Shown here: piece after piece, positions 24,979-64,000 of the stretch | Position numbering within the stretch: position 1 is the stretch's first letter | How the letters are laid out: the number at the start of each line of letters is the position of its first letter | Assembly: GCA_964537115.1 (NCBI GenBank) | Contig: CAZHYW010000003.1 | Coordinates: 26,087 to 90,086 of the forward strand | Length of the DNA stretch: 64,000 nucleotides | Direction: 5' to 3' | Source: an uncultured Candidatus Saccharibacteria bacterium | Lineage (GTDB): Bacteria; Patescibacteriota; Saccharimonadia; Saccharimonadales; UBA4665 | Made by a program: the position numbers and the translations under genes | Notes under the pieces: model-generated | Told to the model about the DNA's origin: nothing | Database searches by the model: none | Seen by the model: the letters and a program-made list of their open reading frames with translations, nothing else

Positions 24979-25055
24979 GGGGACGTAGCTCAGTTGATTA
25001 GAGCGCCTGCATGGCATGCAGGAGGTCGTGGGTTTGAATCCCGTCGTCTCCACCA
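24979..25055 (+). tRNA. tRNA-Ala(GGC), CCA encoded
   Basis: Cloverleaf folded by hand. Acceptor GGGGACG/CGTCTCC has G3:U70, the anticodon loop is AUGGCAU, the T-loop is TTTGAAT and the discriminator is A. Confidence 0.92.
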
Positions 25056-25095
25056 AAGAAAATACCGGTCACACTATGCGACCGGTATTTTCTTT
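25056..25095. terminator. Strong bidirectional terminator
   Basis: Perfect 16-bp stem AAAGAAAATACCGGTC/GACCGGTATTTTCTTT with a 9-nt loop and A/T runs on both sides. Confidence 0.85.
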
Positions 25096-25120
25096 GGTGT
25101 TTGGATAAAAGATCAGTGGG

Positions 25121-30056: not shown

Positions 30057-30430
30057 TGGTGGAGCTGCCGGGTACTGCCCCCGGGTCCGTCGGCGTTTTC
30101 GCTAGTCGTCTACAGGCTTAGTCTGTTTTAAAAGTCTTAGCGCATGGGTATCGAAACATACAAACAGTCCATGCGAGCAATCCTGGTCTTAGCGGTCGGA
30201 TTGAATAGGTCCGTCCGAGCAATCAGAAATATAGAACGCTTATTCGCTATCTGATGTCGCAAAGGCGTTTCCGTGGCAACTAGGCTACGGAGAATGCGAG
30301 CTGAGGTGCCTTAAAGACACTAGCTACGCGGTTCCAAACTTTTGCAGTTATTGGATTTTGCCTATATCGCTGACAAGCGACCTGCTGATCTAGCGGTAAC
30401 GTACCAACGTCGAGCTTAAAATTCAGCCCC
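30057..30430 (-). ncRNA. ssrA: tmRNA (SsrA), 374 nt
   Basis: 5' GGGGCUGAAUUUUAAGCUCGACG... and 3' ...GGACCCGGGGGCAGUACCCGGCAGCUCCACCA. The acceptor carries G3:U70. Candidate tag frame: AKVWNRVASVFKAPQLAFSVA* (30345-30280). Confidence 0.85.
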
Positions 30431-50850: not shown

Positions 50851-51516
50851 ATGAAAAACCAGTGGCAAAAAGCTGTCATTACAGACGTCACCCAAGCATC
50901 AGAGGACATGCTGTCGCTAACAGTGCAGCCAGAACAATGGGTGCCCTACAAAGCGGGACAATGTTATGAGACTCGCATCCCGGGTCTCAGGCTCATGCGT
51001 AAATACTCCGTGGTGTCGTCTCCCCATCATAAAAACAAGTTGGAATTTGGCGTACAGCTATTGCCGTATGGCGCCGTGTCTCCCCAGATGTGGAAATTGA
51101 AAGCCGGCGACTCGCTCGATATCCGCGGACCTTTTGGCACCTTTACGTGGGACACGTCCATGGACGGCCCAGTTATTCTGATTGGCGGCGGCTCAGGCAT
51201 CACCCCGCTTATTAGCATGTACCACTACATCCGCTCGGTGCGCCCCAGTGGCGAGATAGTTTTTATAGTCAGCGCCAAACACGCCGGCCGCGTCATGCAT
51301 TATGAGCAGTTAAAACAGCACATCAGCACACGTTTTACGGCTACTGAGGGTCGAGTCGACAAAGACTTTTTAACCAGCCTAATCGGCCAGTACGTAACCA
51401 ACTCGAAAACACATTGTTATGTCTGCGGCCCCAATAGTTTTGCTGCCGATACGGTAGACATTTTGCTGGAAATGGGTTTCCCCGATACAGTCATCATGTC
51501 GGAGGGCTTCAGCTAG
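50851..51516 (+). CDS. Ferredoxin-NADP reductase-like FAD/NAD(P)-binding oxidoreductase
   Basis: RKYSVVS (RxYS) and GGGSGITP motifs. The ATG lies 8 nt after the MOSC stop. Confidence 0.85.
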   Translation: MKNQWQKAVITDVTQASEDMLSLTVQPEQWVPYKAGQCYETRIPGLRLMRKYSVVSSPHHKNKLEFGVQLLPYGAVSPQMWKLKAGDSLDIRGPFGTFTWDTSMDGPVILIGGGSGITPLISMYHYIRSVRPSGEIVFIVSAKHAGRVMHYEQLKQHISTRFTATEGRVDKDFLTSLIGQYVTNSKTHCYVCGPNSFAADTVDILLEMGFPDTVIMSEGFS

Positions 51517-51682
51517 AACGCTCTAACTTGCGCCAGGTTATTGAACACTCTATACTTGCGGGCAGTTATGTCTAATTACTATGTTAGCAATTACTCTTGT
51601 TGTCCGTGTCAACCATGCTAATTGGTTGCAGCCTTTACATTTTTCTCTGAATTCAAACTAAATCTCCAGCTTGCAAACCAAT

Positions 51683-51744
51683 GGCGGTGAAAGCCTAGCG
51701 GTTAGGCATTGGTTTAAAAGCTGGTTCGACTCCAGTCGCCGCCT
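51683..51744 (+). pseudogene. tRNA-Cys-like module lacking a contiguous anticodon arm
   Basis: Acceptor GGCGGTG/CGCCGCC (7 bp, one G-U), D-arm GCC-TAGCGGTTA-GGC, T-arm GCTGG-TTCGACT-CCAGT and discriminator T. Only TTGGTTTAAAA sits where the anticodon arm should be. A Cys-type loop TTGCAAA+CCAAT sits immediately 5' (51671-51682). Confidence 0.45.
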
Positions 51745-51770
51745 CTAAACAATACTAGGAGGAAAATGGT

Positions 51771-52010
51771 ATGAAACAGGCAAAAACAATTCAGGCGTTT
51801 ATGGTTGGCGCCGCTCATTATGTGGTAAGTGGCACGAACGGCGACGAGGCAGTACTGCGCATAGACTACCAACACAATACTTACTCACTCGAGAGTCAGC
51901 GCACACCTTTGAATCCCGCATTTCAACAAGAAGTATCCGAGATCGCAGAAGACCTGTTACGACGTAAACACGGCATAAACTTTGCGAATAAACTAACCCA
52001 TCCGGAGTAG
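51771..52010 (+). CDS. Hypothetical protein
   Basis: 79-aa ORF with a strong SD TAGGAGG. Confidence 0.5.
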   Translation: MKQAKTIQAFMVGAAHYVVSGTNGDEAVLRIDYQHNTYSLESQRTPLNPAFQQEVSEIAEDLLRRKHGINFANKLTHPE

Positions 52011-52687: not shown

Positions 52688-52916
52688 CTCGTTGAGGACG
52701 GAGTGGATTTGATGTCTTTGCCAAGCTTATTGGTGAGCCCGCGGAGAGTACTTTGTATACCGTCGTCGCATGCTCGGCGCGAGCTCCGGTAAACGTCGTC
52801 CGCGGTTCACAGCCAGCTACGCTGGCTGGCCGCTTCAACCCATGCTCGGAATCAATTCCTGCGCGTGGGTCCTCGCGAACGAACTCCTCCGGAGTTCGGA
52901 TTTTCTGCGAAAATCC
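52688..52916. other. Hairpin-dense region without convincing coding potential (candidate structured RNA or oriT-like DNA)
   Basis: Perfect hairpins AGCCAGC-TAC-GCTGGCT (52811-52827), GAACTCC-TCC-GGAGTTC (52881-52897) and GGATTTTC-TGC-GAAAATCC (52898-52916). There is also a long-range GAGGAC/GTCCTC pairing. Confidence 0.3.
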
Positions 52917-52920
52917 TACC

Positions 52921-63852: not shown

Positions 63853-64000
63853 ATCTATTCATTCACATATAAACTTTTTCAATCTTCTAAAAATTAAACA
63901 CTACACAATTATGAGTCTTATCTTCTATATATTTATATATTAGTAAGGGAGAAATATAAAGAGAGAGTAAGAGAGGTAGGAGGAGAGTAGAAAGTTCAAC

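Follow-up and report, generated by a model that had tools for sequence, protein, structure and literature searches.

The tRNA-like module at positions 51683–51744 on the plus strand of the window, by which we mean the whole 64-kb stretch of DNA analysed here, is best explained as an inactivated, non-decoding remnant of a tRNA-Cys(GCA) gene that now forms the structured 5′ leader of a small protein gene, a reading to which we assign a probability of roughly 0.7. The truncated gene has kept its acceptor, D and T arms and U73, and its identity is given by positional orthology with intact genes. In the history that we envisage, the ancestral unit would have comprised a promoter, a structured leader of ~120 nt, tRNA-Cys and then the small protein gene. 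An internal deletion of ~10 nt in the lineage of the window, probably a spontaneous event in a palindromic stretch, would have removed the anticodon together with the 3′ strand of its stem, and a change of U8 to A with one extra A would have accompanied it. The remnant would still be transcribed as the leader of the ORF, since the small ORF apparently has no promoter of its own; co-transcription of the two we infer solely from the spacing of the genes and from a promoter-like motif that is conserved. Counted against the pseudogene reading is the second, working tRNA-Cys that it requires, which was inferred but not located in the genome.

Structure of the module and tRNA scores

The acceptor stem of the module has 7 bp with one U·G pair (GGCGGTG, 51683–51689, with CGCCGCC, 51737–51743) and is followed by a D arm (GCCT, 51693–51696, with AGGC, 51704–51707) around the GG-containing loop AGCGGTT. 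The T arm is made up of GCTGG (51720–51724), the loop TTCGACT and CCAGT (51732–51736), and the discriminator (position 73) is the T at 51744. Between the D and T arms there are 12 nt, A-TTGGT-TT-AAAA (51708–51719), in the place where a usual tRNA has an anticodon arm of 17 nt and a variable loop. This three-arm fold is the RNAfold output for 51683–51745 (−24.6 kcal/mol, z = −2.47), and sequence and folding agree with the initial annotation, in which an acceptor/D/T module with U73 and without an anticodon arm had been described at 51683–51744. Set against a canonical tRNA, the 7-bp acceptor stem, the D arm with GG and the T arm with TTCGA are all present, and the anticodon stem-loop with its 7-nt loop and anticodon is absent. 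The identity elements for CysRS are U73 and the GCA anticodon; the module has kept U73, and GCA is deleted. The module is not a decoding tRNA, since its anticodon is gone and the remnant RNA is thereby unable to decode.

With the Rfam tRNA model (RF00005) the module scored 26.8 bits (E = 0.0027 in 700 nt), the gathering score being 29, and its anticodon arm filled 6 positions instead of 15 in the alignment. A check for an intact canonical tRNA at this site agreed with the sub-threshold Rfam score, as ARAGORN made no call on the module in default or relaxed bacterial modes (thresholds down to 50–70%); its mitochondrial mode alone reported 51683–51745, with an 'anticodon' of 2 nt. When 51300–52000 was scanned with Rfam at E ≤ 10 the tRNA model was the sole match, and no tmRNA, Y RNA/YrlA or T-box was found in that interval. 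A permuted or split tRNA was also considered and rejected, as the upstream piece amounts to a loop and a stem strand only (12–13 nt) and the T arm and acceptor 3′ strand occupy their usual place. The Rfam register would have given an acceptor stem of 8 bp (G−1:C73), which was set aside as well; the register is fixed by the orthologs in the form first annotated.

Orthologous loci and the deletion

The 79-aa protein encoded downstream of the module had one direct homolog, and a profile search with the two sequences retrieved three more. On the contigs that carry them (L018, L076, L077 and L078, all four retrievable homologs) an intact tRNA-Cys(GCA) gene, called by ARAGORN, stands ~22–27 nt before the homolog of the ORF in 4/4 cases. 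The window and these four loci were aligned from the promoter-like motif through the ORF (alignment A6). A resemblance of the module to tRNA-Cys had been noted at the outset, and it is borne out by this positional orthology with tRNA-Cys(GCA) in all four relatives; judged by gene order and alignment, the module evidently descends from a tRNA-Cys(GCA) gene. Across A6 the pairing of the cloverleaf reaches 99%, and two acceptor pairs show compensatory changes, which argues that the tRNA family is genuine and under selection.

Columns 232–241 of A6 are absent in the window only, with the deletion junction at 51715/51716 (+). The deleted stretch, which reads GCAAAAC(C/T)(A/G)A in the orthologs, covers ~10 nt from G34 to about position 43, with end points that are uncertain by one or two bases, and what it held was the anticodon and the 3′ strand of its stem. 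Also specific to the window is AAA at 51690–51692 (+; A6 columns 206–208) where the orthologs have TA, that is, U8→A and one inserted A. The change of the encoded CCA to CTA (TCTA) was considered as part of the lesion and dismissed, the intact gene of L077 being likewise without an encoded CCA. The retained parts compare well with the relatives: the T arm shows no change and the D stem is intact, AGGCATTGGTTT agrees at 12/12 positions and every acceptor pair is preserved, including those affected by the three differences from L018. Such good retention despite saturated synonymous sites points either to a recent deletion or to continuing selection on the remnant. Template switching at a quasi-palindrome was tried as the source of the deletion and rejected, for it predicts that GC is retained, and GC is absent.

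The missing stretch lies within a near-perfect palindrome (TTGGTTTGCAAAACCAA in the orthologs) and contigs of two assemblies end nearby, both of which would suit an artefact in which the palindromic anticodon arm had collapsed in assembly and the real gene is intact. We find this scarcely credible. The truncated sequence of the window recurs in identical form in two MAG assemblies and in three Logan assemblies, the latter from separate runs and made with a different assembler, and such agreement among independent assemblies argues against an assembly error. A collapse would moreover not also yield U8→A and the insertion, or the two leader changes described below.

The conserved leader and its alternative pairings

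A candidate promoter is located at 51528–51556 (+), with TTGCGC (51528–51533) and TATACT (51551–51556) separated by a spacer of 17 nt. It scores below the threshold of the consensus scan; its hexamers are recognisable in the window and at three of the four orthologous loci, the remaining one, L076, having only the −10-like TATGCT. Across the loci the −10 variants are TATACT, TATGCT and TAATCT.

Two blocks were distinguished in the leader downstream of this motif. Block 1 (51610–51632, +) forms a local hairpin (CAACCA, 51610–51615, with TGGTTG, 51623–51628, and the loop TGCTAAT) and repeats the sequence of the anticodon arm's 5′ half (ATTGGTT-GCA). The stretch GCTAATTGGTTGC (within 51613–51632) is almost invariant across the five lineages, and the local hairpin is part of the minimum-energy structure in four of the five precursors. 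Block 2 (CTTGCAAACCAATG, 51670–51683, +) is the conserved leader element that had initially been taken for an anticodon loop moved upstream of the module. Nothing has been displaced, however, as the same leader precedes four intact tRNA-Cys(GCA) genes. In all five loci TTGCAAACCAATGG is invariant (14/14) and abuts tRNA position +1, and its presence beside intact genes implies that the leader element pre-dates the deletion. The likeness of block 2 to the 3′ half of the anticodon arm is due only to the near-palindromic sequence of that arm around TGCA.

In the intact orthologs block 2 is complementary to tRNA positions 25–37 (13 pairs, 98% paired). An alternative partner for block 1 is provided by block 2 together with the acceptor 5′ strand, in a helix of 17 pairs with 95% of cells paired, against at most 53% in slid controls. 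Six pairs of this helix show a one-sided change via G·U and none a double-sided one, a pattern which, over five sequences, would favour constraint at the level of RNA over constraint at the level of DNA. In the intact L018 precursor the helix between leader and tRNA body reaches −28.7 kcal/mol, against −26.0 kcal/mol for the cloverleaf, and since the energies are near-equal in an intact precursor too, the competition between the folds appears to be ancestral. With the 3′ strand of the anticodon stem gone, the leader–body helix of the window is left without a competitor.

The pairings available to the leader (51528–51683) and to its counterparts in the four relatives alternate as a:b, b:c, c:d and d:e in an attenuator-like manner, where a is CAACCA, b is UGGUUG (block 1), c is block 2, and d and e are the 5′ and 3′ strands of the anticodon stem. 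That the conserved leader acts as a natural RNA switch on the folding and processing of tRNA-Cys, the armless copy being fixed in the 'invaded' state and retained as a tRNA-like element for the processing and stability of the mRNA of the small protein, is in our view rather improbable and speculative at this stage. If such a switch did exist, a:b with c:d would represent an invaded tRNA body and b:c with d:e a free cloverleaf, and the maturation of tRNA-Cys would be coupled to translation of the attached small protein.

When the leader is included in folding, the minimum-energy structure in the window is a hairpin of 16 bp at 51666–51724 (+; 7 + 9 bp with a 2×2 internal loop), which is a rival to the T and acceptor stems. 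Its strands are CCAGCTT-GC-AAACCAATG (51666–51683) and CATTGGTTT-AA-AAGCTGG (51707–51724). The initial annotation had called a mutually exclusive hairpin of 9 bp here; the hairpin exists, and its length had been underestimated. The nearest-neighbour model gives it −28.1 kcal/mol against −24.6 kcal/mol for the tRNA-like fold, 3.5 kcal/mol in favour of the hairpin, and inverted repeats of this quality occur at three places in the 64-kb window. Two leader substitutions found only in the window (consensus CTAAC to CCAGC) lengthen the hairpin from 9 to 16 bp. Both improve the pairing with the T-stem strand, a hint that the hairpin may have been selected since the deletion occurred.

The small protein gene and the remnant as its probable leader

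The gene that follows the module occupies 51757–52010 (+), with the Shine-Dalgarno sequence AGGAGG at 51757–51762 and an ORF of 79 aa at 51771–52010, and is conserved as the partner of the tRNA. The distance of 26 nt between module and ORF had been given correctly. The four homologs of the protein are 55–59% identical to it, the proteins of the family measure 76–86 aa and 25 columns are invariant among the five. Compared with L018, the ORF has a pN of 0.24 and a pS of 0.93 (saturated), and third codon positions account for 49 of the 92 differences; to judge by these substitutions, this is clearly a real gene, and one under purifying selection. The protein had no hit in Pfam. Its AlphaFold model (mean pLDDT 68) consists of three strands and one helix, and a Foldseek comparison of this model with the PDB gave no match below E = 0.5.

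The flanking genes of the tRNA–ORF unit are different at every locus, and in L076 the neighbours of the unit are ordinary chromosomal genes (M20 peptidase, Dus/HAD and MarR). The gene had earlier been labelled the first accessory gene, a label that has to be abandoned because its four homologs all partner tRNA-Cys and, in L076, do so in an ordinary chromosomal setting. By its conserved gene order, the 79-aa gene can be regarded as the tRNA's partner and not as island cargo.

The remnant might go beyond passive survival and have been exapted as a tRNA-like leader, an option already raised in the initial annotation, with selection acting on its structure and not on decoding. Two forms of this explanation were considered: the acceptor/T minihelix would direct cleavage by RNase P and at the 3′ end and so free the mRNA of the small gene and its Shine-Dalgarno sequence, or the longer hairpin would stabilise or gate that mRNA. 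The 3′ end of the tRNA, GCCUC(C/U), is complementary to the Shine-Dalgarno sequence 10–12 nt downstream in 5/5 loci and can mask it until processed, and a promoter consensus scan found no promoter-like site between the module and the start of the ORF. All stems of the remnant are intact, the three acceptor differences from L018 having kept their pairing, and the T arm is that of L018 while pS in the adjoining ORF is 0.93. The growth of the hairpin from 9 to 16 bp by the two window-specific changes is also in keeping with exaptation, as is the precedent in B. cereus of a non-decoding pseudo-tRNA with a cellular role (PMC3399842). A recent deletion would, however, explain the conservation equally well. 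There is a single armless sequence, so that the remnant itself gives no covariation, and the chance of the post-deletion changes missing the stems is ~0.1 (an estimate), which is not significant. The core tertiary U8 is mutated and a base has been inserted, as under relaxed constraint, and the hairpin is preferred over the tRNA-like fold by its 3.5 kcal/mol. On balance we consider exaptation unlikely, if deserving of consideration, and retain the inactivated, non-decoding remnant as the preferred explanation.

The neighbouring element

An integrated mobile element of ~13.2 kb, identified by gene content, GC and a tRNA-Glu repeat, extends from 52750 to the window end at 64000 and ~1.9 kb past it. 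Its left junction is formed by 19 nt that repeat the 3′ end of tRNA-Glu (18/19), at 52731–52749 (−) and in the same orientation as the tRNA. The intact tRNA-Glu(TTC) is on the minus strand 1926–2000 nt past the window end, at the end of the MAG contig by which the window is continued (DATIIQ010000009.1; L003 67–141), and the 3′ end of an ORF for a 570-aa large serine recombinase reads 41 nt into it on the opposite strand. Among the genes of the element are those for an Mrr-like nuclease, an odd tRNA, two large serine recombinases, and HTH, TraG/FtsK-like and Replic_Relax proteins, and its GC is ~0.47–0.50 vs ~0.54 in the left flank. The module had been thought to mark the edge of this element; the left junction is ~1 kb further right, at the tRNA-Glu repeat. 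The deletion in the module has no connection with the neighbouring element.

These observations bear on the earlier proposal of an att scar, by which site-specific recombination within the anticodon loop would have split tRNA-Cys and left the loop and the 3′ strand upstream. The sequence can be written as two hybrid sites that share TT (GGCATTGG-TT-AAAAGCTGG and CTCCAGC-TT-GCAAACCAAT), two large serine recombinases are encoded within 15 kb, and two MAG assemblies break near the module with an overlap of 141 nt. On each of its defining points, however, the proposal is contradicted. The upstream piece TTGCAAACCAATGG is identical beside four intact tRNA-Cys genes, in relatives that have neither the accessory genes nor a junction, and the order of the 'sites' is opposite to that in the product of an insertion. 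By BLAST, no second copy of tRNA-Cys or of the module was found in the window plus 2 kb (66 kb), the sole tRNA repeat being the 19-nt one of the tRNA-Glu that bounds the nearby element. The downstream gene, finally, is conserved with the tRNA and is not cargo. An att scar is in our judgement very improbable, and the internal deletion in tRNA-Cys(GCA) is preferred.

Three further features of this region were recorded. The tRNA inside the element (54412–54502, +; 91 nt) is separated by ~150 nt from the 3′ terminus of a gene for a large serine recombinase and is a class II tRNA with a 7/5 acceptor/T arrangement and a long variable arm that has a stem of ~6 bp. It has G73, an encoded CCA, a D arm of the Ser type and the anticodon UCU (Arg AGA/AGG), and looks like a tRNA-Ser body one base from GCU, as far as its sequence features can tell; if it were charged by SerRS, Ser would enter at Arg codons. 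Just within the left border of the element, flanked by convergent ORFs, 52918–52960 holds a 20-bp inverted repeat (90% complementary, 3-nt loop), probably a bidirectional terminator. The contig of one MAG starts and that of another ends at 51648 and 51788, with an overlap of exactly 141 nt, which fits a branch of a k=141 assembly graph, and two Logan contigs end at 51826; these contig ends suggest that strains vary, or that a repeat is present, in the surroundings of the module and the start of the ORF. The 141-nt overlap was rejected as an element edge, as it coincides neither with the tRNA-Glu junction nor with the Logan ends at 51826.

Searches for similar loci

A pattern scan for 'armless' Cys-type tRNAs in a genome collection that did not include the species of the window returned eight loci. 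Four of these (L011, L012, L014 and L015) are tRNA-Gln or tRNA-Cys genes, in other respects normal, in which 'NN' replaces ~11–13 nt of the anticodon region, and masked or collapsed stretches in that collection can therefore imitate armless tRNAs in pattern scans. Three others are oddly structured tRNA-like sequences unrelated to the family of the module. The remaining locus, in a Woeseia MAG (L017, 313–347), is an armless tRNA-Gln-like gene with U1:A72 and G73. The corresponding viral scan gave a sole armless tRNA, on the IMG/VR UViG 2623620477 (L009, 3176–3239, −), which scored 46 bits with Rfam; it was rejected as an armless tRNA-Cys, as the Rfam alignment reveals it to be Gln-like (U1:A72, G73). 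The armless genes of L009 and L017 may be sporadic deletions, assembly artefacts or something more. Neither the genome nor the viral pattern scan lends support to an 'armless tRNA-Cys' family.

One metagenome scan and a viral scan for GGCATTGGTTT..GGTTCGA.TCC found only unrelated plastid or phage tRNAs. Leader block 2 had 42 hits in the viral scan, about the number expected by chance (an estimate), and 0/42 were followed by a tRNA-like T-loop motif; leader block 1 had none in the viral scan. For an empty-site comparison a reductase ortholog of 67% identity was available, with synteny over two genes only and 36 nt to the next gene, a gap that leaves no room for a tRNA. A literature search found no paper naming the runs or assemblies that carry the module. 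Elsewhere in the window, a one-piece tmRNA is located at 30057–30430 (−; Rfam 58 bits, no ARAGORN call), and a tRNA-Ala(GGC) at 24979–25055 (+) is followed by a strong terminator hairpin at 25049–25101.

Significance and comparison with known systems

The outcome is mainly corrective: the module is not an element edge, the 'accessory gene' is the partner of the tRNA, and the attachment site is in tRNA-Glu. There is nothing out of the ordinary in the module as such, in which a short internal deletion has disabled a tRNA gene. More noteworthy is the unit to which it belongs, in which tRNA-Cys and a small protein are linked across five lineages that have diverged deeply. If the leader controls the folding of the pre-tRNA or the access of RNase P, it would be a natural counterpart of engineered RNase P riboswitches, with the armless copy as its naturally occurring 'locked' mutant. 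The tRNA-Cys/small-ORF unit with its self-complementary leader, and the class II UCU tRNA in the element, are worth a further look.

The module shares with bacterial tRNA pseudogenes its derivation from a normal tRNA gene by a deletion and point changes, its inability to decode, scores below the thresholds of tRNA finders and a position near an element that targets a tRNA. At island borders, truncated copies of tRNAs are as a rule 3′-terminal fragments that integration has duplicated. The module differs from these in that it keeps both ends of the gene, only the anticodon region having been excised, and in that it seems to have stayed inside a live transcription unit. For integration into tRNA genes, the naturally palindromic anticodon stem-loop is a frequent crossover site, and an element integrated in a tRNA gene is indeed found close to the module. 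Unlike the situation at such att sites, the direct repeat here belongs to tRNA-Glu and not to tRNA-Cys, and the upstream Cys 'fragment' is a conserved leader that is found without any element. With the tRNA-like domain of tmRNA and the YrlA mimics the module has in common an acceptor, a T arm and a D region without an anticodon arm. In contrast to these RNAs it has no Rfam match to such families and no G3:U70, and it represents a recent loss from a true tRNA-Cys and not an ancient dedicated RNA.

Pairing of a leader with the acceptor strand or the tRNA body is a known block on pre-tRNA processing. Leader structure gates RNase P in engineered constructs, as in a synthetic RNase P riboswitch (PMC7897497), and pairing between the leader and the 3′RCCA affects RNase P cleavage of pre-tRNA (PMC9433436). 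The conserved leader described here resembles both in being able to pair with the acceptor 5′ strand and the tRNA body; those cases are engineered or involve a short leader–trailer pairing, unlike the leader of the window family. The literature searched contained no natural leader in which 13 nt are complementary to the anticodon arm of the same tRNA and a decoy copy lies upstream.

The pseudo-tRNA 'tRNA-Other' of B. cereus has a full cloverleaf and experimental phenotypes, and lies next to an island (PMC3399842). Like tRNA-Other, the module is derived from a tRNA, is non-translational and could still matter to the cell; unlike it, the module has no full cloverleaf, bears no sequence relationship to it and is known from sequence alone. 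Among such systems the module is a further tRNA pseudogene, unusual only in its internal deletion and in its place inside an apparently live operon.
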